From a phage, in the sequence record PQ327946.1: 64,000 nucleotides of DNA. One strand, 5' to 3'. Position numbers and translations under genes: made by a program. Below the pieces are notes generated by a model. The model made no database searches, was not told the origin of the DNA, and saw nothing but the letters and a program-made list of their open reading frames with translations. Of the stretch, positions 253 to 54,111 are shown piece after piece. Numbering within the stretch: position 1 is the stretch's first letter; every line of letters begins with the position of its first letter.

Positions 253-801
253 TTAACGAGCCCATTTGATAATTTCTGTAATCAAATTATTACGTTCGCT
301 TGCATTAAATCCTATAACTTTGTTAGCACCATCATGATTAAGTAATTGATACGTTTGGATTTCGTTATGAATTGCAAACTCTTCAAAATATGAAATGACT
401 GTATTAAAACCGAATGAAGACAAAGTAATAAGGTCGTCTTCAAAACTTTCAGTCATTTCGTTACGTGTTAAAATAATTGTGAACACATCATGGTTTTGGC
501 AAAGACGAACATAATCCTGTTCATAAACGTCAAGAACCGAGTCCGCATCTTGTCGAATACGTCCATAAACCCAGTTACTAATATATCCACGGTCTAACAG
601 ATAAATCTTAGTAGGGTCTAAATAATTCAACATCGTTTCGAAACAGCCAACTTCATTTCGAGACTTAACATCGAAACGTCCATCAACTGTTCGTTTAAGG
701 AAATCAATCTTTACATATCTTTCACTAATTTCCATTATGTCATTAATGAAAGTTGTTTTACCAGCATTATCCGGGCCATCTACTAAAATAATTTTAGCCA
801 T
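253..801 (-). CDS. P-loop NTPase, small kinase-like protein
   Basis: 182 aa ORF; Walker A GPDNAGKTT near N-terminus; ATG at 801..799. Confidence 0.55.
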   Translation of the reverse strand: MAKIILVDGPDNAGKTTFINDIMEISERYVKIDFLKRTVDGRFDVKSRNEVGCFETMLNYLDPTKIYLLDRGYISNWVYGRIRQDADSVLDVYEQDYVRLCQNHDVFTIILTRNEMTESFEDDLITLSSFGFNTVISYFEEFAIHNEIQTYQLLNHDGANKVIGFNASERNNLITEIIKWAR

Positions 802-802
802 T

Positions 803-1702
803 TTATTCCTCGATTACGACATCTTCATATTTAGGTATATTATACGGTGAAGAAATTAAAGCGTTAAAGTAGATGAACTCACCAAGACCTGGATGGAATA
901 CTTCTTCAGGATTTTCGAAATATTGAATCTTCGGACGTCCTTTAAGAATTTGATAGTACTCAGTTTTAGTTGGATTAAAAATTCGAATCAGCGCTTCTTC
1001 AGGATACTTATTTCTGTCGAAACTATTATTTGGATCAGTTATATAAAGCGGTTGACCTAATTGAATTGCGCATTCAACCACTTGTTCAAAACGATAGCAC
1101 GGGTCACTAATTCGAAATGGATGAAAAATACCATCTAGATGAATAGGAGCCAAATCACCTACAAGACGCTGCATGATGGAAGGACGTATAACTTTCTGCG
1201 TTACGATAATCTTATTACCATCCGCACCAGCGTTAACCAGCACTTCCTTTTGACGTTCATTCAACACAGTAGTTTGAAGTGAACGATTAACCGACAACAT
1301 GTCGGTTTTTAAGAATTCGTCAATATAAAAACGCGGTTTATTAGGGTCTGCGGTGATATTGAAATTGAATTCTACATCAAAAGCACCATCATATCCAGTG
1401 ATATCTGTTATTAGAAAATCACAATCATAATAAGCAATTAATGAATCAACCACAAATTCATTTTCAGACCAGAAATATTTACGAGTGTTATACGCGTTAT
1501 CTTTATACCATAATGGAACAAACTTAAATTCTGGGAAAAGACGTTCACATTCTTTAATATCAGATGCATTACGTGGATATGTAATCACATCACCTGGATT
1601 AGCACGGTGCAAATGAAGTTGGAAGTTGCCATCCTTAAGGATAGCATACTGTCCAGTTTCATAAGACCGCATACTCAAGATAGGTACGCGGAAAATAGCC
1701 AT
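803..1702 (-). CDS. Hypothetical protein in the syntenic slot of T4 beta-glucosyltransferase; candidate novel DNA-modifying transferase
   Basis: 299 aa ORF between uvsX and gene 42; no resemblance to T4 beta-gt as I recall it. Confidence 0.5.
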   Translation of the reverse strand: MAIFRVPILSMRSYETGQYAILKDGNFQLHLHRANPGDVITYPRNASDIKECERLFPEFKFVPLWYKDNAYNTRKYFWSENEFVVDSLIAYYDCDFLITDITGYDGAFDVEFNFNITADPNKPRFYIDEFLKTDMLSVNRSLQTTVLNERQKEVLVNAGADGNKIIVTQKVIRPSIMQRLVGDLAPIHLDGIFHPFRISDPCYRFEQVVECAIQLGQPLYITDPNNSFDRNKYPEEALIRIFNPTKTEYYQILKGRPKIQYFENPEEVFHPGLGEFIYFNALISSPYNIPKYEDVVIEE

Positions 1703-2418
1703 TAGTCAAGGAATCCTTTAACATAATCAAAATCACGTTCAAACACATGGGCACTTACCATGGTATGAGTATAATCACCAACTTCTACACCACATTCGTT
1801 AGCGATATAATGAAGTAATTTTCCTTGGAGATAAAAATCCAACTGCATAACAACAGCACAGTTCTGAGAACGCATATGGCAGTGGGTATAAAGCTTACCA
1901 TCACGAATATAATAAGTCACCGAGTCAGTACATGGATATTCAAGCGTTTCGTCCGAATCAAGCAAAGCCTGATCAGAACTTTCTAGAATTTGGAACACAA
2001 CTCTTCGGGAGTTAGGCTTCTCTTTAAGTTCTTTTAGAAGAGCTGGTAATTGGGCCGCAATGCGAGGACCATAGAAAGTGTTGAAGTTCGCCGGCAAAAC
2101 ATCTGATTTTGGTTTAGAAATAAATTTAGCGACATTAGGATATGCCTTAAACGCTTCTTCTGCGTCAGTACCACCAGAAATCATAAACTTCCAGAAGTCT
2201 TCGGCATATTCATAAGAGATGCGGTTAATACGTGGGTCGGTCATTTTGAATGATGATGGAGTGTCAACAACTACTGTCATAGACCCAATTTCATTACAAC
2301 GTCCAATACGAGAATCAGTTACGAATTCCGGGTTTTCTAAAATTTCACGATTGACTGCTTTAAATGCGGTTTGAAAATCTGCGGCTTTGATATATTTCAT
2401 TGTGTTATGTTTTCCCAT
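1702..2418 (-). CDS. 42: dCMP hydroxymethylase (thymidylate synthase family)
   Basis: 238 aa; ThyA-family motifs YPCTDS and MRSQN; position upstream of gene 43 as in T4. Confidence 0.75.
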   Translation of the reverse strand: MGKHNTMKYIKAADFQTAFKAVNREILENPEFVTDSRIGRCNEIGSMTVVVDTPSSFKMTDPRINRISYEYAEDFWKFMISGGTDAEEAFKAYPNVAKFISKPKSDVLPANFNTFYGPRIAAQLPALLKELKEKPNSRRVVFQILESSDQALLDSDETLEYPCTDSVTYYIRDGKLYTHCHMRSQNCAVVMQLDFYLQGKLLHYIANECGVEVGDYTHTMVSAHVFERDFDYVKGFLD

Positions 2419-2696
2419 GTTTACCTCAATACAATTTATTATATACTCAATTCGTAAAGCTTATTTGAATTTCTTGACAATGTTGATATAACGTAAAGCT
2501 TCAGCATCGATACTTCCAAGAACACTATGAAGAAATGCATCAGCGTAGTATTCCAATTAAACAGGTTCTTTAATCACTTTAGCCGCTTTAGTTTCAAACA
2601 GGCCCATCAGGGCCTTTTTAAGAATTTGTTCGATGCTGTTAATTTTCATAGTCAAAATCTCTTCGTTAAGTTGGTGGTTAAAAGTTTTTCTAGAAA

Positions 2697-3857
2697 TCAT
2701 TCTGGGTACCTCAAAGCGTCGTCAGAGTTAGTTATATCAATAATAGATATAGAATTTTCTGATAACCCATTTTTAGATAACTGACGTTTATAATATCTTT
2801 CACAATATGTACACGTCGTCCCGCAGATTTCATTAGCACAATCGAAATCTGGATGTTTGAACCACCTTTTTTCTAAAAAGCCATCTAACAAAGAGGTTTC
2901 AATATTTACCGTATGTGAAAACTCGGTCTCATTTTCAAGAGTGAAAATGGTCTCTAAAGGCTTCCACAATTCCAACAAATTACCTTCAAATTTTTCGGAA
3001 GCATAAGCTTCAAGAACTTTCAAAATGTAGTCTGTGCTACCTGTACGTCCTGAAACTTTGAATTGAGTGATACCAATATCATTATAAAGTTTCAAATCTT
3101 GAGGACGAACAAAACGAGTTCTCAACCAGTTAAATGGGTCTGTATCACGAGCTTTAATACAGTGCTGCATTGGATACCCATTTAAGGATTTGGCATCATC
3201 TACTGTAACATCGGTGCTATGGAAAATATAGCAAGAGTCACGATAACTACAATGTGTTGTATACCCTTTACCAGCATTAGAACAGAACTCATTTACAAGA
3301 ACTTCAAATATTATATTGTTCTTATTACAAAACTCTGCTGCACGCTTCAGGAAAGAAACTGAACGGTTCTTATGAATTCCGCAGCAGACCTTTTTGATAT
3401 TATATTGGTCATGCAAGTATTTGATTTGAGTTACAGCATCGACATGTAGAATTGTTGAAACTTCAATCTCAATGTCTTTATTGACTTCACGAACAATTTC
3501 CATAACAACAGGGTTAGCGATAGTAATACGCCATACGCCTATTGACCAAAGATACTGAACATAATCCTGAATAGCTTTCTTCTTCCACTCAACTAGTTCT
3601 CTTTTTGAACCAGGATTTATCGTGTTGAGTGTATAGTTAAAGCAAATACCTAATTCGTTACAACGTTTAACGTAGTCTTCTAACATCTTTTTGTCAACGT
3701 CAGGAAGCCTAAAATCAGGTCTGGCTGCTACAAAAGCCATTTCTCTTGTAGAGCCATATACTTCGTTTATCAAGCTATTAGGATAGGTTTTATTGAGCTC
3801 TACGATTTTATCAAGAAGAGCTAAATCAAAATTCGTTCCGATTTTAAAAGTATTCAT
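2697..3857 (-). CDS. U32-like TIM-barrel protein with C-terminal cysteine cluster
   Basis: 386 aa; N-terminal pattern resembles U32 family; C-terminal CANEICGTTCTYC cysteine cluster. Confidence 0.45.
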   Translation of the reverse strand: MNTFKIGTNFDLALLDKIVELNKTYPNSLINEVYGSTREMAFVAARPDFRLPDVDKKMLEDYVKRCNELGICFNYTLNTINPGSKRELVEWKKKAIQDYVQYLWSIGVWRITIANPVVMEIVREVNKDIEIEVSTILHVDAVTQIKYLHDQYNIKKVCCGIHKNRSVSFLKRAAEFCNKNNIIFEVLVNEFCSNAGKGYTTHCSYRDSCYIFHSTDVTVDDAKSLNGYPMQHCIKARDTDPFNWLRTRFVRPQDLKLYNDIGITQFKVSGRTGSTDYILKVLEAYASEKFEGNLLELWKPLETIFTLENETEFSHTVNIETSLLDGFLEKRWFKHPDFDCANEICGTTCTYCERYYKRQLSKNGLSENSISIIDITNSDDALRYPE

Positions 3858-3914
3858 TTTTTTTGCATCCCACGTTAATTGATGCGATGGTTTTTGCAGG
3901 TCTTACTTAAATTA

Positions 3915-4316
3915 TTATAGATTCGGTTTATATGATTTAAATGTTTCGAATTCGCCTTTATTCATAAGAGCTTTGAATTCGTCAGGACGCATAGCTTTGT
4001 CGTCGATAATCCAATCATATACTGGTTTATGTGTTAGCAAATTATGGTACTTCAATCCAATGTTTGCCAAGTTCTGAATCAGACTTGGGAGAATGTCAAT
4101 TGCTATACGACCAGGACCGACTGACTTCATACCGCGAGCAGTGTAAAGCGTTATGGTATGCCCTGCATCATACAGGGCATTAATGGCAGATACCATTTCG
4201 ACGTCTGGTTTGAAGTTCACGTAATCACGATTGTTATTCCACTCTGTTATACAATCATCGACATCAAAACAAAGATTAAGCATGTTTTCTACACGGTGCA
4301 TTAGATTCGTTCCCAT
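3915..4316 (-). CDS. HAD-superfamily phosphatase-like protein (start uncertain)
   Basis: 133 aa ORF; FDVDDCIT fits HAD motif I (DxD); alternative ATG starts at 4301 or 4283. Confidence 0.5.
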   Translation of the reverse strand: MGTNLMHRVENMLNLCFDVDDCITEWNNNRDYVNFKPDVEMVSAINALYDAGHTITLYTARGMKSVGPGRIAIDILPSLIQNLANIGLKYHNLLTHKPVYDWIIDDKAMRPDEFKALMNKGEFETFKSYKPNL

Positions 4317-5986
4317 TGATGAGTGATATCGCCACCGATTGGACGATAAGAAACACCAGTTTCTTTATCAGTTAGTACCCATTTACCAGGATTTTTTGTA
4401 ATCAGAGTAGCCGTTACAGGTTCTGCTACATCATAACTAATAGTGCCGTCCTGAAGTACACGGCCCATGTTACGTAATTGCTTAGTCAGAAGTTCCATAC
4501 CTTTATAATATGCGGCTACCGCTTTAAGTGGATTATTCTTGAAATAACCACCTAATGCAATCCAGATAATTGCTACAGCCAAATGATGATACTCATTAAA
4601 CGAACTCATCTTTCCATATTTGTAAACTAATGGATTGATGTTAATAGTCACATTACAAGTTGTTTCATCAATAGTAAACTGACCCCAGGTCGGATTAGCG
4701 TTGAATTCATCATAACCTGAAACAGCATAAAGCACTTTAGCTTCATCATACAATTTTGGCCCATAAATCTTGGTTTCACCAAAATATCCACGAGGGTCGA
4801 TAAACTTGACTTCACCATTATCAGTAATCATAGTATTACTGAAGTTCGGGTCACCATGAATAACAGAGTACTGTCCCTGAGAACGGTTATGATAACGAAT
4901 AAGGTGTTCTAAAGCTTGTTTCAGCATTGGCTTCAGACGCCCAATCTTAGTGTAGTTCACATGTGTGATTTTACCAAATGAATCAATCAATGGTTGAATA
5001 CTTTCACAACGATCAATAACTTTCGTATAGAATTCTTTAGTGAAATCACGACGAACAGTTTCAGGACTTACAAAATAAGTGTCTGTGCTGAATTTCAGTG
5101 CGTCTAAAATTGCATCAACAATTTGTGGACGAGCAAGACTCGATTTGGATTTAATATATTCAAATGCTGGCTTACCTTTAATGCGTTCCATTTCAAAGTT
5201 ATTTTCATTAACAGAAACTAACTGAGGAACTGAATCTGATTTCACTTTAAGATACCATGAAATCTCATCTTTCTGAAGAGCTCGTCCCTGTTCGGTTAAT
5301 GCGAATTTAGTTACAGTTTCTTCACCAATTTCAACTGCATTAAAACTACGATTAAGTTCACGAACTTCATGAGCTTTTTCAAGTTTAGGCATATCACCTA
5401 AATCAATTAGATTCATAAGCTCTGATTTATTGAATGCGCTGCCGTAAAGGAATTCTACGAAATCACGTCCTTTGCAGTATTCATGAATTTCCTCATCAGT
5501 AGAACCCATATAGAATTCCCAGTCTTTGAACTGATAAATTCCTACAACATTACCACCTGTTGAACCTACGTTAGTGATATTTTCGCCGTCGAAATTATAT
5601 CGACATTCGTCACCCTTAACATAGATTGCGTTAACATTCCAAGACCATGAACCAAAATCAGGAATAATATCACACCAGTTAACAATTACATTATGACCGT
5701 CTAAATCTTTGTGTAATTTAGCAAGAGCATAAGCAGAACCGTACGCTTCATCAACTGTACGAATAGTCACATTGAACCCTTCTTGCTCACAATAAACTCG
5801 AACAGTTTCAGCAAATTTTGAATGAACTACTACAATAATTTCATCTGCGCCAAGGTCAGAATAAATTGTATACAAATTGCTCAGAATAGTGTCTTGTTTA
5901 TAGTTAACAAGCACCTTAGGAATATGATGCGTTATTGGATACAAACGAGTTGCCAGTCCAGCACCAAGAATAACAGCTTTTTTCAT
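4301..5986 (-). CDS. Bifunctional sugar-1-phosphate nucleotidyltransferase / APH-fold sugar kinase
   Basis: 561 aa; N-terminal ILGAGLATRL nucleotidyltransferase signature; C-terminal HGDPNFSN ... DPRG kinase motifs. Confidence 0.6.
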   Translation of the reverse strand: MKKAVILGAGLATRLYPITHHIPKVLVNYKQDTILSNLYTIYSDLGADEIIVVVHSKFAETVRVYCEQEGFNVTIRTVDEAYGSAYALAKLHKDLDGHNVIVNWCDIIPDFGSWSWNVNAIYVKGDECRYNFDGENITNVGSTGGNVVGIYQFKDWEFYMGSTDEEIHEYCKGRDFVEFLYGSAFNKSELMNLIDLGDMPKLEKAHEVRELNRSFNAVEIGEETVTKFALTEQGRALQKDEISWYLKVKSDSVPQLVSVNENNFEMERIKGKPAFEYIKSKSSLARPQIVDAILDALKFSTDTYFVSPETVRRDFTKEFYTKVIDRCESIQPLIDSFGKITHVNYTKIGRLKPMLKQALEHLIRYHNRSQGQYSVIHGDPNFSNTMITDNGEVKFIDPRGYFGETKIYGPKLYDEAKVLYAVSGYDEFNANPTWGQFTIDETTCNVTININPLVYKYGKMSSFNEYHHLAVAIIWIALGGYFKNNPLKAVAAYYKGMELLTKQLRNMGRVLQDGTISYDVAEPVTATLITKNPGKWVLTDKETGVSYRPIGGDITHQWERI

Positions 5987-6167
5987 GTTGTGGTCCTCAT
6001 TGGTAAGTAGGAGTATTGTACACTATTCTAGTTAAAGCATTCATACTTTGCTTGTAGTCCAATCATAATCCATCCGATTATAAGAGTCGGAATCATTACT
6101 GGAGCCGTTAAGCTCCAGTAGATAGTCATGACAAGCATCAATAGTAAAAGTCCTATTGTTATTGCTT

Positions 6168-6803
6168 TCATTGTTCGCCTCGTAACATGGCACCTAGTGC
6201 ACCGCCAGGGTGGAACTTAAGGAAGTCATTAGAGGTAAATCCACGTTCAGACGAAAGGTTGATAGCAAACGTATCGATAAGCGCTAACAACAATGTAGTG
6301 GACATAGTCGGAGCCAGAGAATTCTCATCAACCTCTACTGCGATGCCTGTACAGAACGTATAATCAAAAAGAGCTTCGTATTCTTGTGGAATGTCTGGGT
6401 TACAATGCAACAGAATCTGTTTGACGTTCGGACGAATCATTTTAAGATGCTTAGCCACGCCTATCATTTCTTCAGTTTTACCAGAACGACTAATATGAAT
6501 CAACACATCATTAGGCGCAATGAATCCTGCATCACCGTGAGAATAATGCCCGGTGTTCAAGTACATACTCGGGATACCGAGTGAAGCAAATGTCTCAGAA
6601 GCTTTAGTTGCGATATTAGCGTTCTTACCAACACCTGTAATAATTACACGACTTTCATAATTACTAAGTCCTGGGCGTCGAAGAGTTTCTAGAATAGCAT
6701 TATAACGAGCAGGGTTTTGACTAATTACTTTGGCCATAGCGGCCAAAGAAGAAGCTTGTTTTATGATTGCGTCAATAGCGATAGTAATAGGAGTAGTTTT
6801 CAT
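6168..6803 (-). CDS. SIS-domain sugar-phosphate isomerase
   Basis: 211 aa; ITGVGKNANIA ... HISRSGKTEE pattern typical of SIS domains. Confidence 0.6.
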   Translation of the reverse strand: MKTTPITIAIDAIIKQASSLAAMAKVISQNPARYNAILETLRRPGLSNYESRVIITGVGKNANIATKASETFASLGIPSMYLNTGHYSHGDAGFIAPNDVLIHISRSGKTEEMIGVAKHLKMIRPNVKQILLHCNPDIPQEYEALFDYTFCTGIAVEVDENSLAPTMSTTLLLALIDTFAINLSSERGFTSNDFLKFHPGGALGAMLRGEQ

Positions 6804-13035: not shown

Positions 13036-13752
13036 ATGAATTATAACTCAATATACGAAAAGCTTATCGCCAATGCTAAATCAAGAAGTTTAGATGGTTA
13101 TACAGAACGTCATCACATTATACCACAATGTTTAGGTGGAAGTGATGATGCTTTAAACTTAGTAGACTTAACACCGGAAGAACATTATTTGGCACATCAA
13201 CTGTTGGTCAAAATCCATCCAGATAATGCCTCTTTAATATATGCCGCTCGTATGATGACAATATCATCTCCTAAAGCAGATAGAAGCAAAAACAAATTAT
13301 TTGGATGGCTTCGACGTAAGAATCAAGAAGTTCAAAAGAACAAAGAATTCACTGCTGAAACCCGTAAGAAAATGTCTGAAGCCGCTTTAAAGAGACCAAA
13401 GATTACCTGTCCACATTGTAATAAATCTGGATACGTTTCTAACATGCGTCGTTGGCATTTCGACAACTGTAAGCATGGACCCAACAAGTGTGTACATACT
13501 ATACCTGAATCACAAAAGCAAAAAATAAAAGACGGGTTAAAGAATGTGGTTCACACTATAGTCCAATGCCGGTATTGTAACATGGAAGGTATAAAGTGTG
13601 TTATAGCAGCACATGAAAAATTCTGTAAATCAAATCCCAATAGAAAGAAAAAAGAGGACAAGAAAATTCAGTGTCCTCATTGTGATAAAATAGGAATCCC
13701 TGCTAATATGTATCGTTGGCATTTTGATAATTGTAAACACAAGCCTCATTAA
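13036..13752 (+). CDS. HNH homing endonuclease with tandem C-terminal zinc-finger repeats
   Basis: 238 aa; HHIIPQCLGG ... EEHYLAHQ HNH motif; two repeats CPHC.K.G...NM.RWHFDNCKH; opposite strand to all neighbours. Confidence 0.75.
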   Translation: MNYNSIYEKLIANAKSRSLDGYTERHHIIPQCLGGSDDALNLVDLTPEEHYLAHQLLVKIHPDNASLIYAARMMTISSPKADRSKNKLFGWLRRKNQEVQKNKEFTAETRKKMSEAALKRPKITCPHCNKSGYVSNMRRWHFDNCKHGPNKCVHTIPESQKQKIKDGLKNVVHTIVQCRYCNMEGIKCVIAAHEKFCKSNPNRKKKEDKKIQCPHCDKIGIPANMYRWHFDNCKHKPH

Positions 13753-15688: not shown

Positions 15689-15917
15689 TACATGCTTCAG
15701 CCATTTTAAGAATAGAACCAGGAGTATCGTTGTCCATTATATTAAAGCTAAATTCAATAGCCCAGTCGGTGCAGACATGAACTGCTTTAACTTCATTGCC
15801 TTCAACGCGTAATGGCTCAATCCAATACTTGATAGCGTTCTCAAATCCATCATCGTCTTTAACGTCCATTTCAACTTCAAGTCCAAGCCCAGCATTGTTA
15901 AATTCATCTAAAGTCAT
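15660..15917 (-). CDS. 46.2: Hypothetical small acidic protein
   Basis: 85 aa ORF between 46 and 47. Confidence 0.45.
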   Translation of the reverse strand: MTLDEFNNAGLGLEVEMDVKDDDGFENAIKYWIEPLRVEGNEVKAVHVCTDWAIEFSFNIMDNDTPGSILKMAEACIEDAYNDED

Positions 15918-16933
15918 TGTGTTGCCTCAATATAAAGTTCGTTGGAATATTTGACCAGCGCTTCTCTGTCTTCGTCTGAGATATCTGGAATCGCGTCAAT
16001 ATATTCTTTAATGATATCTTGAAGTGATTTAATCTCGATTTCCTGGTCGTCATCAGATTCAACACTGTTATCAACTTTAGAAACCATACGAAGAGAGTGA
16101 ACTACTTTTTCAAGTTCAGATTCAAACTTAGTCAACTCTGAATCAATTTCTGATACTATAACACGTATGGCTAGATTAGTATAATCAGAATAATTGATTT
16201 TGCCTTTAAACGGATAAGTGATTCGTCGATGCCATGTTGTTTCATTAGGAATAAATTCCATACGTTCAACATCAGTGTCAAATACCCAGAATCCGCGTGG
16301 GTCGTTCTCATCACCTGCAGTAAGTGTCCACGGTGTCCCAATATATTTGACGTTAGCAGCTTCAGAGATTGTGTGGAAGTGGCCGGACCAGACTTGTTTA
16401 TAGGTCTTTAAGAAATCAGGTTCAAGCCCATGAGACTTCATTCCTTTATAGAAATAAAAGCCGTTCAGTTCCCAGTGACCAACACAATACGCCGCGGAAG
16501 AAGTCTTGATGTGCTCTAAGATTTCACCTGTATTTTCTTCACACATCCATGGAATGATATCAATCAGACATCCGTCAAAATCTACAGTAGTTGGATGTTC
16601 GTAAATAGTAAAGTTTTCAAATTGAGTTAACAATTCAGAAACAGTGTTAGGTGTTATTGTATTCTTAAACGCCATGTCATGGTTTCCTATCGTGACATGA
16701 ACGTGAATGCCTGCTTTAGAAATCATATCAACGATTTCACGATTGAATTCCATCGTACGATGTGTAATTGCTTTACGGACGTCAAACCAATCACCGTACT
16801 GAATCCAAGTTTTAATCCCGTGTTTCTTAGAGTATTCAATTGCTTGACGAATACCATCACGTTGAATATCTTGAACCCATGGGTCGTCTTGTTTGACTCC
16901 GATATGGAAGTCGCCTAAGTGCAAAATTTTCAT
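15914..16933 (-). CDS. 47: Recombination nuclease subunit (SbcD/Mre11-like phosphoesterase)
   Basis: 339 aa; calcineurin-like motifs GDFH, GNHD. Confidence 0.9.
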   Translation of the reverse strand: MKILHLGDFHIGVKQDDPWVQDIQRDGIRQAIEYSKKHGIKTWIQYGDWFDVRKAITHRTMEFNREIVDMISKAGIHVHVTIGNHDMAFKNTITPNTVSELLTQFENFTIYEHPTTVDFDGCLIDIIPWMCEENTGEILEHIKTSSAAYCVGHWELNGFYFYKGMKSHGLEPDFLKTYKQVWSGHFHTISEAANVKYIGTPWTLTAGDENDPRGFWVFDTDVERMEFIPNETTWHRRITYPFKGKINYSDYTNLAIRVIVSEIDSELTKFESELEKVVHSLRMVSKVDNSVESDDDQEIEIKSLQDIIKEYIDAIPDISDEDREALVKYSNELYIEATQ

Positions 16934-17215
16934 ATTATTTCCTCATTAGTTAATTCATTCTATCATCCGTTTATAAAGCAAAAAAGGAACTCCGAAGAGT
17001 TCCTATCCACATAGTACACCGTACAGAGGCTCATTTGAACTTTTAAATCGAATGGGCTTGTATGTAATAGTTCCTTCGGCTTTAGCTTTATCATAAGACT
17101 CTTTAAAACGTCTCATTCTTTCTGCTTTGCCTTTACGGATTTTATCGAAATTTTCAGAAGTCTGGGTGTTCGTCATGCATAATCACCTCTCAGAAAATAC
17201 CTAAATCGATTTCTC

Positions 17216-17437
17216 TCATCGTTTCCACCATTTCTTAACTTGAAATGAATCAACCCACACGAGTTGTTTTGGGTCTGCCTTTACAATAGGTGGACAAATT
17301 TCTGTAATAGAACTGTCGTGATATTCCTTTTCAGAGATTTTAACACAAAGAGGACCTCCCAATTTAATGGAGAATCCTGCGTTCAGATTAAGACGTTTAA
17401 ACTTTGTTTGAACTAGCGCCATTAATGATGTCCTCAA
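17216..17437 (-). CDS. Hypothetical protein (alpha-gt slot)
   Basis: 73 aa ORF. Confidence 0.3.
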   Translation of the reverse strand: MRTSLMALVQTKFKRLNLNAGFSIKLGGPLCVKISEKEYHDSSITEICPPIVKADPKQLVWVDSFQVKKWWKR

Positions 17438-17720
17438 TAGCCTGACGAGTAGTAATCCACTGGATTTTAATTAACTTGTCATTATATGGTTGTCGTAGAA
17501 TATCCCGAGATTTCTTAATAGCATATTCATAAGCTTCGAAGTTGTTTTGAATTGCTGCTTCTTGAGCATGAGCATAAAGACGGTTTAGTTCAAAACGATT
17601 CTTTTTAAGAATCTTTTCGGATTTTTTACGTGCTTCAGCTTCATTTTTCTTTTGGATTTCTTGTAGCATTTTAGCTACTGCATCTTCTGCTTCTTTATTT
17701 TCAATAATCTCGGTAGTCAT
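17397..17720 (-). CDS. Hypothetical protein (alpha-gt slot)
   Basis: 107 aa ORF, charged/helical. Confidence 0.4.
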   Translation of the reverse strand: MTTEIIENKEAEDAVAKMLQEIQKKNEAEARKKSEKILKKNRFELNRLYAHAQEAAIQNNFEAYEYAIKKSRDILRQPYNDKLIKIQWITTRQAIEDIINGASSNKV

Positions 17721-17721
17721 A

Positions 17722-17931
17722 TTATCTCATTAAATTAAAATAAAAACGTCCATCCTCTTCAATACAGAACTCATACTCAACCGGAGTCCCATTTATCGAA
17801 AATGACACGTCATGTGGGTTCAAAGGGTCGATGTCAAAATTAATTTTAAATTCACGACCCAACAGTTTTACCAAATAAGGGATTGCTTCGTCAAAAGGTT
17901 CTTCTAAGTAGTTAGAGATGTCAATTGTCAT
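17722..17931 (-). CDS. Hypothetical protein (alpha-gt slot)
   Basis: ORF trimmed to ATG at 17931, just after gp55 stop. Confidence 0.4.
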
Positions 17932-40718: not shown

Positions 40719-41021
40719 TTATTTACCTTTAATTACTTTAGCTGCTTCGATAGCCGCTTGCTGAAGGTCATCCATAGACATACCGAATTTAGAAGCAAAG
40801 TTATCAATTTTCTTTTCAACAGCATTCAAAGGCTTGGCCTGTTTACCTTCATTAGCGCCAGGAAGAGCGAGAATACGCTCTTTGTCAATATAAAGGCTTA
40901 CAAGTTTCTTACGGTCTTTATCGGACAAATCGTGAAATGAATGGGCCTTTTTATTTATAGCGGCTTCTAATTTACCTGCACTCACTCGCGCTTCAGTAAT
41001 AAATTCTTGATATGTTTTCAT
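40719..41021 (-). CDS. Internal protein candidate with capsid targeting sequence (IPII/IPIII-like)
   Basis: 100 aa; N-terminus MKTYQEFITEA matches the T4 internal-protein targeting sequence. Confidence 0.55.
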   Translation of the reverse strand: MKTYQEFITEARVSAGKLEAAINKKAHSFHDLSDKDRKKLVSLYIDKERILALPGANEGKQAKPLNAVEKKIDNFASKFGMSMDDLQQAAIEAAKVIKGK

Positions 41022-41584: not shown

Positions 41585-41866
41585 CTATTTTTCTGAAGCG
41601 CCTGAAATGTATTTTTCAAGACGTTGTTTCATCAGCGAGCCGTTCTTAGCGATTTCTTCCGGTTTATCGCACATACGCAACAAGGCTTCAAGCTTAACGA
41701 TATCACTGGTGCGCTCAAATTTGCGAGTATCTATCTTACTAGCAAGTTCAGAAATACGTGCTAATAGACTTTCAGCTTCAACCAAAGCTGCACCTAGCTT
41801 AGTTGCAAATGTGTCAGTAGCTTCGTTAAGAATAGATTCTGATAAAAATTCACTATATGTTTTCAT
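41585..41866 (-). CDS. Internal protein candidate with capsid targeting sequence
   Basis: ATG at 41866 overlapping lysozyme stop; N-terminus [10 protein letters not shown]. Confidence 0.55.
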
Positions 41867-49433: not shown

Positions 49434-49898
49434 TTATTTAATTTGTTTAGCAGACCAGATACGGTCTTTAATAAGTTTTTGGATATCTTCAACATACTCG
49501 AGGCTATGAGCGTGAGGATTATCTTTGAAGCTATGTGCTCGTGCCAGTTTCCGGCCTTCTGTTTTGATTACTAAAAGCTCTTTAAGAATTGCTTCATACT
49601 TAGAAATAATTCCTTTGGCGATATTTTTTTCTTGAGCGGCTTTAGGGTCCGCTTTTGGCGTAGGTGCTTTACCTGTAGCTTTTTGGAACAATTCACCTGA
49701 TGCAGCTAGGCTTTTAAAAACTCGGCTAACAGTATTAGCATTAGTAAAACCTTCGGCTTTAAAATCTCTAATAAAACGGAAACGTTCTTCATCAGAGGCG
49801 TCTTTGTAAGAATATTTACCTGCTTGAATTGCTGCAATCGCAGCGGCTTTTACATCTGAACTAGATTGTTCAGTCAAAAATTCAGCGTATGATTTCAT
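49434..49898 (-). CDS. Internal-protein-like protein with capsid targeting sequence
   Basis: 154 aa; N-terminus MKSYAEFLTEQ; flanked by terminators. Confidence 0.5.
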   Translation of the reverse strand: MKSYAEFLTEQSSSDVKAAAIAAIQAGKYSYKDASDEERFRFIRDFKAEGFTNANTVSRVFKSLAASGELFQKATGKAPTPKADPKAAQEKNIAKGIISKYEAILKELLVIKTEGRKLARAHSFKDNPHAHSLEYVEDIQKLIKDRIWSAKQIK

Positions 49899-49971: not shown

Positions 49972-50024
49972 TATGCCTTGCGGCAACCTTGTCGGGGTTC
50001 CACCTGCTAAGGCAAGTGTTTGTA

Positions 50025-50048
50025 CGAAACGCCGGGATTCGAACCCGG
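50025..50048 (-). other. tRNA-like T-arm/acceptor remnant
   Basis: Minus strand CCGGG-TTCGAAT-CCCGG; no convincing D or anticodon arm found by hand. Confidence 0.3.
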
Positions 50049-50283
50049 TTATTAAGCAGTTGACACTACTCAATATTTTTAAAAGGCCATATCTCGACCA
50101 TATCCGAACGTTCCGTCAAAAACGCTACTCGGCTTACGGCAAAGATATTTCCTCGAATCGATAATTCTGTGCGCCGTTTCTGCTGTGATGTAAGGGGATA
50201 TTAACGAATCATAAAGATTTATTAAGACCAGTCCTTACACAGGGAACATCAGTCCGACGACTTGCCGGTAGCGACCCGGCTTC

Positions 50284-51695: not shown

Positions 51696-52079
51696 TTAAC
51701 CTTTATCAACAATAGTATGTGTATGGGCATTTACGATTTGCCACCAGTCAAAACTATCGCCAAATCGTTTTGATTTATTGTCTTCAATAATTTGGCGTAA
51801 TTCATCTTCAGTAGCGGCTTTCGCGATTAAATCAGCATATCCACCACGAGGATAATAATTATCACCTGCAAAAAGTAAAAAGTTTGGTTTAATATTATTA
51901 AACTCTTCAAGAGTAATAACTGTTCCACCAGGTTGAACAATATCTACATAACTATATCCTAATTTTTGAGCAGCATCTACTGCTTCAAGCAGGGTATCAT
52001 GAGCCCATCCAATTTGGCAATCTGGCTTTTCAGATGGATTAGCCTGATAATCCGCGTACACTTTATACATTCTATTCAC
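51696..52079 (-). CDS. Hypothetical protein
   Basis: 127 aa ORF. Confidence 0.45.
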   Translation of the reverse strand: MNRMYKVYADYQANPSEKPDCQIGWAHDTLLEAVDAAQKLGYSYVDIVQPGGTVITLEEFNNIKPNFLLFAGDNYYPRGGYADLIAKAATEDELRQIIEDNKSKRFGDSFDWWQIVNAHTHTIVDKG

Positions 52080-52257
52080 CTTTAGAAATTTTATCCATAA
52101 CGATAGCGATTAAACCGATTAGAAATGCTACTACCAATGAGATAGAATTTTCTGTTGTTGTCAGTAGTCCACAAATGAATCCTACAAACATCGAAAAACT
52201 AAAAGCCATTGAAGCAATTACTACAGCAACATTACGAATCAGTTCAGCGCGTTTCAT
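52072..52257 (-). CDS. Small membrane protein
   Basis: 61 aa, two hydrophobic segments. Confidence 0.4.
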   Translation of the reverse strand: MKRAELIRNVAVVIASMAFSFSMFVGFICGLLTTTENSISLVVAFLIGLIAIVMDKISKGE

Positions 52258-52287
52258 TTTATTATCCTCTCATGTTTTGATAGGACT

Positions 52288-52317
52288 ACTATAACATAGT
52301 CCTATCAGCATGTAAAC
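52288..52317 (-). promoter_or_regulatory. Early promoter GTTTAC-N18-TATAGT with inverted repeat
   Basis: TAGGACTA/TAGTCCTA repeat around -10. Confidence 0.45.
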
Positions 52318-52321
52318 TACT

Positions 52322-52609
52322 TTACAGAAGAGTTTTTGCAATAATTTTAAGCTGAGCTACAGAAATATGCTTAGCTTTAAACAGTGTAGTCTCTTCAGCC
52401 GGAGAGATAACAATAGTAGCGCCGTCTTTCTTAGCAGACCATCCATCACCTAAGTAAACAGTACCTTTTACTTCTTCGCCGTCAACCAGACTAATCATCG
52501 GTTTACCCTCACGTCCTTTATTTGCTTTAATAACTTCGGAAGTAAGAGTTGCTTCAGTCAGAGTAGAAACGTTAGCAACAGGTGATATAAATTCTTTATA
52601 GGTTTTCAT
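52322..52609 (-). CDS. ipI: Internal protein I-like (capsid targeting sequence)
   Basis: 95 aa, same precursor length as T4 IPI as I recall it; N-terminus MKTYKEFI; directly upstream of 57B. Confidence 0.6.
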   Translation of the reverse strand: MKTYKEFISPVANVSTLTEATLTSEVIKANKGREGKPMISLVDGEEVKGTVYLGDGWSAKKDGATIVISPAEETTLFKAKHISVAQLKIIAKTLL

Positions 52610-52643
52610 TTTATTTCCTTGAGGTCGTTTATTTGATAGGATG

Positions 52644-52673
52644 ATAGTAACACACCATCATCCTTATGTAAAC
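52644..52673 (-). promoter_or_regulatory. Early promoter GTTTAC-N18-TACTAT
   Basis: Cassette with GGATGAT/ATCATCC inverted repeat. Confidence 0.45.
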
Positions 52674-52686
52674 TGTTTTGTGAAAA

Positions 52687-53372
<686 letters not shown>

Positions 53373-53376
53373 TTTA

Positions 53377-54111
53377 TTACCTTAAGATTGTTTCAATTTT
53401 AGAATAAAGCTCTTCTAAAGAGCCGTCGTTTGTAATAACTAAATCGCCTTCTTCAATAGGCAACCCAGCTTCTGTAATATGTTTATCAGTGGATTCCGTA
53501 CCAGAGCGAACCACATGAATAACTGTAGCACCCATCGCTCTAGCGGTTTCCATTTCATGGACTTGGCGTGTATCGGTTACAACATAGTAATCGAAATCAC
53601 TTCCAATATAATCCATATAGTTTAATGCAAAAAGTTTAACCCAATACATACGGTCAAATAAATTAACGACAACATCCGTACCGAGGGCTTGCATAAGACG
53701 GCGGATTGACCATGTGTCGTTGATATTATTTATAGCTTCACGCAGGGCTTCATATGGTTTAATATCTAGATATGAATACCCACCTTCTAATGATGATAAT
53801 ACTTTAACATTATTAATTGGTAAATATTGACTTTGTAAATAAATTAGCGCTTCTTCCAATAATTCAATAACATCCAACTTATTGAGATTTAATGGTGTTT
53901 CACGGTCGTATCCAACACCTTCGAAGTATTCATATTTCAACTCAGTGAATACATCAGGATTTTCAGCATGCCTACGTCCCCAGGCTATTGCTAGAGCGTC
54001 TTTAATCGGATATGCCAATTGGTATTTTACGGATTTAAAGTTTGAATTGATGTAATCGGCAGTAGTGTCTTTACCACTACGTTTGATGCCGCTTAAAAAG
54101 ATTAGCTCCAT
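53377..54111 (-). CDS. 1: Deoxynucleoside monophosphate kinase
   Basis: 244 aa; P-loop SGIKRSGKDT; closely matches T4 gp1. Confidence 0.9.
   Translation of the reverse strand: MELIFLSGIKRSGKDTTADYINSNFKSVKYQLAYPIKDALAIAWGRRHAENPDVFTELKYEYFEGVGYDRETPLNLNKLDVIELLEEALIYLQSQYLPINNVKVLSSLEGGYSYLDIKPYEALREAINNINDTWSIRRLMQALGTDVVVNLFDRMYWVKLFALNYMDYIGSDFDYYVVTDTRQVHEMETARAMGATVIHVVRSGTESTDKHITEAGLPIEEGDLVITNDGSLEELYSKIETILR

Follow-up and report, generated by a model that had tools for sequence, protein, structure and literature searches.

Does internal protein I (IPI) keep its target when the phage that encodes it decorates its DNA with a sugar other than glucose? The question is raised by the ipI locus in a stretch of phage DNA of 64,000 nucleotides (PQ327946.1), referred to here as the window. 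A sequence-only reading of this DNA placed an ORF of 95 aa, beginning with MKTYKEFI, at the position of T4 ipI. It supposed that the phage may lack glucosyl-hmC and carry another sugar, and suggested that the IPI homolog may then have a different target. Its starting point, that T4 IPI blocks a restriction aimed at glucosyl-hmC DNA, agrees with the literature, in which the target is the type IV enzyme GmrSD. T4 Ip1 specifically inhibits GmrSD-CT596 (PMC12373910), and the inhibited enzymes are described as the CT596/Eco94-type GmrSD (PMC4437046; PMC12373910).

The ORF list and the sequence itself showed an ATG start, 95 codons and the MKTYKEFI N-terminus on the minus strand; the coordinates of this gene and of the other features are presented in Table 1. 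The ORF matched the Pfam family IPI_T4 (PF11634) with 167.7 bits (E 5.7e-50), the cut-off of the family being 25 bits, and its residues 20–95 covered profile positions 1–76 out of 76. PHROG 4363, "internal virion protein", matched the ORF with an E-value of 1.6e-47. Chain A of PDB 2JUB, "Internal protein I", which is the solved NMR structure of T4 IPI*, aligned with residues 20–95 free of gaps, with 71 of 76 residues identical (E 2.2e-41). The gene order around ipI (trna.2, trna.3, trna.4, ipI, 57B, 57A, 1, 3) is the same in T4 and RB69. All the sequence-level defining features of the IPI_T4 family are present in the window gene, and the exact coordinates, the Pfam and 2JUB matches and the trna.4–57B synteny confirm the position given to it earlier. 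Judged from its sequence, the ORF encodes an ordinary, already described copy of IPI of the RB69 type, that is, the Mosigvirus allele. It is hardly conceivable that the ORF represents a chance frame or a pseudogene, considering that the ORF is intact and matches the family profile and the solved structure at full length, that a ribosome-binding site and a promoter-like motif lie upstream, and that homologs occur in approximately 290 phage records.

Table 1. Features of the ipI locus and of the arabinosylation cluster, in window coordinates.
Feature	Position	Strand	Remarks
ipI gene, 95-aa internal protein I precursor	52322..52609	-	Stop codon 52322..52324; Pfam, PDB and RB69/T4 alignments
Capsid targeting sequence/propeptide, residues 1-19 (MKTYKEFISPVANVSTLTE)	52553..52609	-	T4/RB69 alignment
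Mature IPI* domain, residues 20-95	52325..52552	-	76 aa, 8.07 kDa, pI 9.0 (computed)
Shine-Dalgarno-like AAGGA	52616..52620	-	6 nt before ATG; minus strand CCTCAAGGAAATAAAATG; putative role
Upstream PeSL-type motif	52639..52672	-	TTTACA-N17-TACTAT with TG, overlapping 12-bp hairpin
Downstream PeSL-type motif	52273..52316	-	TTTACA-N17-TATAGT with TG, overlapping 12-bp hairpin
trna.4	52072..52257		Downstream of ipI on the coding strand
57B	52687..53142	-	Upstream of ipI
57A	53142..53372	-	Upstream of ipI
Gene 1	53377..54111		Upstream of ipI
RB69-type arabinosylation cluster, complete, uvsX to gene 43	253..6803	-	98-99.6% protein identity to RB69
299-aa protein, putative first DNA arabinosyltransferase (gp46:47)	803..1702	-	
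561-aa nucleotidyltransferase-plus-kinase (gp52:53)	4301..5986	-	

The alignment with T4 and RB69 revealed the targeting motif MKT[YF]xEF at the N-terminus of IPI. In a motif scan, LTE (residues 17–19) was the sole [LI].E motif of the protein, and it stands directly before Ala20, the first residue of the 2JUB chain and also of the Pfam domain. For T4, the function of the targeting sequence and the L/I-x-E rule of the prohead protease gp21 are both established (PMC9026906).

Megablast comparisons assigned the window to an RB69-like phage of the genus Mosigvirus. Over its first 6.9 kb the window shares 97.7% identity with RB69 and up to 98.7% with other isolates; in the ipI region the identity to phage JQD51 is 98.7%. 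A tblastn search with T4 a-gt and b-gt across the 64-kb window found nothing (best E 0.53 and 4.8, respectively); as positive controls, the same queries matched the Tequatroviruses UFV10 and Phaginator at 91%. The genes uvsX, 47, a-gt.2 and 55 were all found, and both canonical glucosyltransferase loci (47–55 and uvsX–42) are inside the window. No ORF of the size of a-gt is present between gene 47 (15914..16933) and a-gt.2/gene 55. The a-gt slot from 47 to 55 (16934..17920) contains only small homologs of a-gt.2 to a-gt.5, with neither a glucosyltransferase nor mobB. A glucosyltransferase relocated within the 64 kb was also considered and was ruled out by the search of the whole window.

The thymidylate-synthase-family protein encoded at 1702..2418 does not resemble a dCMP hydroxymethylase closely, having only 24.8% identity to T4 gp42. 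Over 238 aa it is 99.6% identical to RB69 gp48, whose activity as a 5-hydroxy-dCMP synthase has been shown (PMC13326640). The complete cluster listed in Table 1 also holds a U32-like protein, a 133-aa protein and a SIS-domain isomerase; the first arabinosyltransferase (gp46:47) and the sugar-nucleotide genes gp50, gp51, gp52:53 and gp55 are each present with an identity of at least 99%, with U32, NTP_transferase plus kinase-like, and SIS domains in Pfam. The arabinosyltransferase and sugar-nucleotide functions are described as putative in the literature (PMC13326640). The DNA of Mosigviruses contains mono- and di-arabinosylated 5-hydroxycytosine, in which the sugar is not linked to hmC (PMC13390438; PMC13326640). 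The loci of RB69 gp3, the second arabinosyltransferase (near rIIA), and of gene 21 fall outside the 64-kb window. As far as can be read from the DNA, this is a phage without glucosyl-hmC and with arabinose instead. The earlier supposition about the sugar was therefore well founded, given that a-gt and b-gt are absent from the window and that the RB69 arabinosylation cluster and the 5-hydroxy-dCMP synthase are present.

The ORFs of 299 aa and 561 aa in this cluster are intact in the window, and each of them is split in the RB69 reference (ORF046c/047c and ORF052c/053c, respectively). The published view is that the 46/47 split of RB69 is a sequencing error (PMC13326640), which the intact window ORF supports; the 52/53 split may likewise be a sequencing error.

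Pairwise comparisons showed that the window IPI and RB69 gp155 are identical at 94 of 95 residues, and at 75 of 76 in the mature part, where the window has T75 and RB69 has A75. The alignment with T4 IPI, which had been proposed as a check, gave 83 of 95 identical residues overall and 71 of 76 in the mature domain, with seven differences in the propeptide and five in the mature part. The mature differences, from the window to T4, are V47I, T75A, V84A, Q86H and T93N; those from RB69 to T4 are V47I, V84A, Q86H and T93N, which are the "four residues" of the literature.

For the mature domain compared with T4, dS is 0.80 and dN is 0.029 (dN/dS approximately 0.04), and dN/dS is 0.02–0.03 in comparisons with other Tequatrovirus alleles. 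In comparisons between genera that differ in their DNA sugar, dS ranges from 0.57 to 0.80, dN from 0.012 to 0.029, and dN/dS from 0.02 to 0.04. The propeptide evolves much faster, with a dN of 0.275 against 0.029 for the mature part in the comparison with T4. In relation to T4, no other protein of the neighbourhood is as conserved as mature IPI* (93% against 52–85%). Purifying selection acts strongly on the mature domain. A recent transfer of ipI from a Tequatrovirus was considered as a source of this similarity and was rejected because dS, at 0.57–0.80, is as high as in the neighbouring genes.

The Tequatroviruses UFV10 and Phaginator present an a-gt (91% to T4), a second transferase of the T2/T6 type and gp42 (96–97%). 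Both share V84 and Q86 with RB69, and V47 is present as well in UFV10, so that the sole difference between the mature RB69 and UFV10 proteins is N93T (N in UFV10, T in RB69). Among the eight sequences sampled, T93 was confined to the Mosigvirus alleles, namely those of RB69 and the window. A75T is private to the window: it is shared by no record of the phage collection of 50,697 records, in which the best protein identity is 98.9%. The RB69-type substitutions thus do not track the type of sugar, three of the four being found also in glucosylating Tequatroviruses. Their explanation as adaptations to arabinosylated DNA was largely rejected, as V47, V84 and Q86 occur in phages with a-gt and gp42. 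This leaves N93T and the private A75T as the sole candidates for a functional difference.

We propose that this RB69-type allele encodes a protein that is very probably packaged, cut by gp21, injected, and active against CT596/Eco94-type GmrSD. This proposal about packaging, cleavage, injection and inhibition follows the work on T4 and RB69. The capsid targeting sequence would direct the precursor of 95 aa into the prohead core, where a cut by gp21 after Glu19 (LTE↓A) would yield the basic IPI* of 76 aa. Hundreds of copies of IPI* would be kept in the head and injected together with the DNA; the head of T4 has about 360 copies of IPI, injected with the DNA (PMC9026906). Once in the cell, IPI* would bind and inactivate CT596/Eco94-type GmrSD before the sugar-modified genome is cut.

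The sugar does not dictate the target of IPI, because IPI* acts on the nuclease protein: co-expression of IPI* abolished the toxicity of GmrSD-CT596 in cells that contained no phage DNA (PMC4437046; PMC12373910). Arabinosylated genomes are also attacked by enzymes of this family. BrxU, of the GmrSD family, cleaves 5-ara-dC DNA (PMC13390438); TgvAB restricts the Mosigviruses Bas46 and Bas47 (PMC11411939); and Thomas et al. 2018, in a summary of earlier work, report cleavage of RB69 DNA by CT596 GmrSD and protection against this restriction by RB69 IPI (PMC6024577). Since GmrSD-family enzymes attack Mosigvirus DNA, an arabinosylating phage would have the same reason as T4 for keeping IPI, and the same protein would be useful with glucose or with arabinose, its point of action being the enzyme, whose family attacks arabinosylated DNA as well.

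The proposed different target is consequently not supported for the window IPI, and nothing in its sequence suggests a new one. Its mature domain is 93% identical to that of T4 with dN/dS of about 0.04, its substitutions are not tied to the sugar, and the enzymes just mentioned, CT596 GmrSD with its reported block by RB69 IPI, BrxU and TgvAB, already act on Mosigviruses. The idea itself is not new, as Thomas et al. 2018 had posed the question. The presence of IPI in the arabinosylating RB69 and the matter of its substitutions have already been published (Thomas et al. 2018; NAR 2026), and RB69 gp155 has been named as an IPI homolog (PMC13326640).

A narrower version of the idea is that the Mosigvirus allele, with N93T and here also A75T, inhibits a different variant or range of GmrSD, tuned to the enzymes of arabinosylated DNA. 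The internal protein system does have a narrow range, since Ip1, Ip2 and Ip3 each inhibit one GmrSD variant (PMC12373910), and T93 was restricted to the RB69 and window alleles in our eight sequences. In addition, UTI89 GmrSD restricts RB69 and not T4, and Thomas et al. 2018 ask if this sensitivity of RB69 stems from its arabinose or from the four differences in IPI, leaving the part of IPI open (PMC6024577). We nevertheless regard such a shift as unlikely. Mature RB69 IPI* differs from its counterpart in a glucosylating Tequatrovirus at a single residue, dN/dS values of 0.01–0.04 do not indicate diversifying selection, and the protection reported for RB69 IPI in that summary of earlier work is against the same CT596 enzyme. 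Moreover, the UTI89 result represents a failed protection of RB69, not a new target; that an altered GmrSD range of the allele, and not arabinose, explains why RB69-like phages and not T4 suffer restriction of the UTI89 type is in our judgement improbable. If N93T or A75T did have an effect, it would be a shift of specificity inside a known inhibitor–enzyme pair.

It could also be argued that IPI is only a packaged basic head protein, associated with the DNA or the scaffold and kept by descent, with no role against restriction. The internal proteins, basic and abundant, were at first believed to bind DNA (PMC9026906), and the pI of 9.0 of the mature protein would suit that role. About one third of the records with the arabinosylation cluster appear to be without this ipI allele, which indicates that it is dispensable. 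However, the IP genes of T4 are dispensable for head assembly (PMC9026906), the role of IPI as a nuclease inhibitor has been demonstrated, and RB69 IPI is reported as protective in the account given in PMC6024577. That the mature domain is almost unchanged over a dS of 0.8 would be difficult to account for if IPI had no specific protein partner. We therefore consider a head protein of this kind very improbable and retain the proposal of an injected GmrSD inhibitor. With this proposal, one injected nuclease inhibitor would be nearly unchanged in phages that decorate their DNA with glucose and with arabinose, a constancy that fits a GmrSD family recognising several sugar modifications and an inhibitor that targets the enzyme. 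Beyond the correct annotation of the gene this has little significance; what is new is the small comparative point that three of the four "RB69-specific" residues are also found in glucosylating Tequatroviruses.

One motif lies on each side of ipI (Table 1); the two are similar and can be aligned with each other. A scan for consensus terminators around ipI found none, and the strong hairpins of this region have no T-run. The upstream hairpin has a folding energy of -15.4 kcal/mol (z -3.5). The downstream motif was a 10/12 match in the promoter scan and folds with -20.6 kcal/mol (z -5.5). In T4/PST and phages of the T4 group, the promoter-early stem-loop (PeSL) presents the consensus TTTACW-N17-TAYWAT with an AGNA-loop-TCNT stem, and has been linked to the shuffling of cassettes in variable regions (PMC4122927). 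The two motifs beside ipI match this published consensus, and we interpret the hairpins flanking ipI that lack a T-run as PeSL-type motifs. The downstream one likely ends the ipI transcripts and starts the transcription of trna.4, in putative terminator and promoter roles. Such bracketing motifs are consistent with the known variability of the ipI locus, at which many relatives align in two pieces in megablast.

The neighbouring genes differ in their closeness to RB69. The homologs of 57B, trna.4 and gene 3 are each more than 98% identical to RB69; 57A is 79% identical, with a dS of 0.55; and the trna.3 homolog (51696..52079, minus strand) is 43% identical to that of RB69 and 52% to that of T4. 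This mosaicism around ipI suggests recombination patches of the size of single genes. The 57B homolog presented a full-length match to Pfam Acb1 (E 1.8e-58), an anti-CBASS cyclic-nucleotide phosphodiesterase. As this match adjoins ipI, two counter-defence genes would stand side by side.

Other ORFs in the window deserve mention. Three more begin with MK[ST]YxEF, all on the minus strand: 40719..41021 (100 aa), 41585..41866 (93 aa) and 49434..49898 (154 aa). They are candidates for injected internal proteins from the second ip locus and from the e/tRNA region; the one of 154 aa matches PHROG 2280, of unknown function. Upstream of tRNA-Arg(UCU) and tRNA-Met(CAU), ARAGORN indicated a tRNA-like element of 95 nt at 50022..50116 (minus strand) with the four-base anticodon ttta, for which Rfam gave no match at E ≤0.01. 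Possible explanations are a degenerate tRNA, a small stable RNA of the T4 rnaC/rnaD kind, and a false positive. On the opposite (plus) strand, an ORF of 238 aa (13036..13752) separates gene 45.2 from gene 46; it has no counterpart in RB69 and only a weak zinc-ribbon match in Pfam. At the same position, UFV10 has a plus-strand ORF annotated as "homing endonuclease".

An IPI homolog is encoded in about 290 records of the phage collection. The Mosigvirus-type ipI allele, at a nucleotide identity of at least 95%, was found in 109 records, and the Tequatrovirus-type alleles (80–90%) in about 170. The arabinosylation cluster, also at 95% or more, was found in 156 records, which means that this ipI is present in around two thirds of the RB69-like records. 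The counts are approximate, since they include duplicate RefSeq and GenBank entries.

The closest known system is RB69 gp155 (NP_861845), which shares with the window IPI the targeting sequence, the cleavage site, the position adjacent to trna.4 and the arabinosylation background. The RB69 ipI annotation begins four codons further upstream than the window ORF. Between its ipI and 57B, RB69 also has RB69p156, a protein of 108 aa (MKTYQEFIAE...) with a capsid targeting sequence. The window is without it: where RB69 has this gene (segment 8750..9187), there is a spacer of 77 nt (52610..52686) with the PeSL-type motif. Mosigviruses are in this way polymorphic for the presence of an injected-protein cassette.

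T4 IPI (NP_049749) has in common with the window IPI the PF11634 family, the length, the locus, the targeting motif and the L/I-T-E↓A site. The phages themselves differ: T4 is a glucosyl-hmC phage, whereas that of the window is assigned arabinosylated 5-hydroxycytosine and has no a-gt or b-gt in the 64 kb. T4 Ip2, Ip3 and the other internal proteins of the T-even phages, encoded in two ip loci, share with IPI the MKTYxEF start, the processing by gp21 and the co-injection (PMC12373910). Their mature domains, however, show no sequence relationship to IPI*, and they are aimed at other GmrSD variants (ECOR21 and ECOR17). The distant members of IPI_T4 in the Dhakavirus phage dhaeg (57%) and the Moonvirus Salmonella phage KM16 (34%) have strongly diverged mature domains, but they occupy the same locus adjacent to 57B and conserve the targeting sequence and the core motifs NKGREGK and YLGDG.
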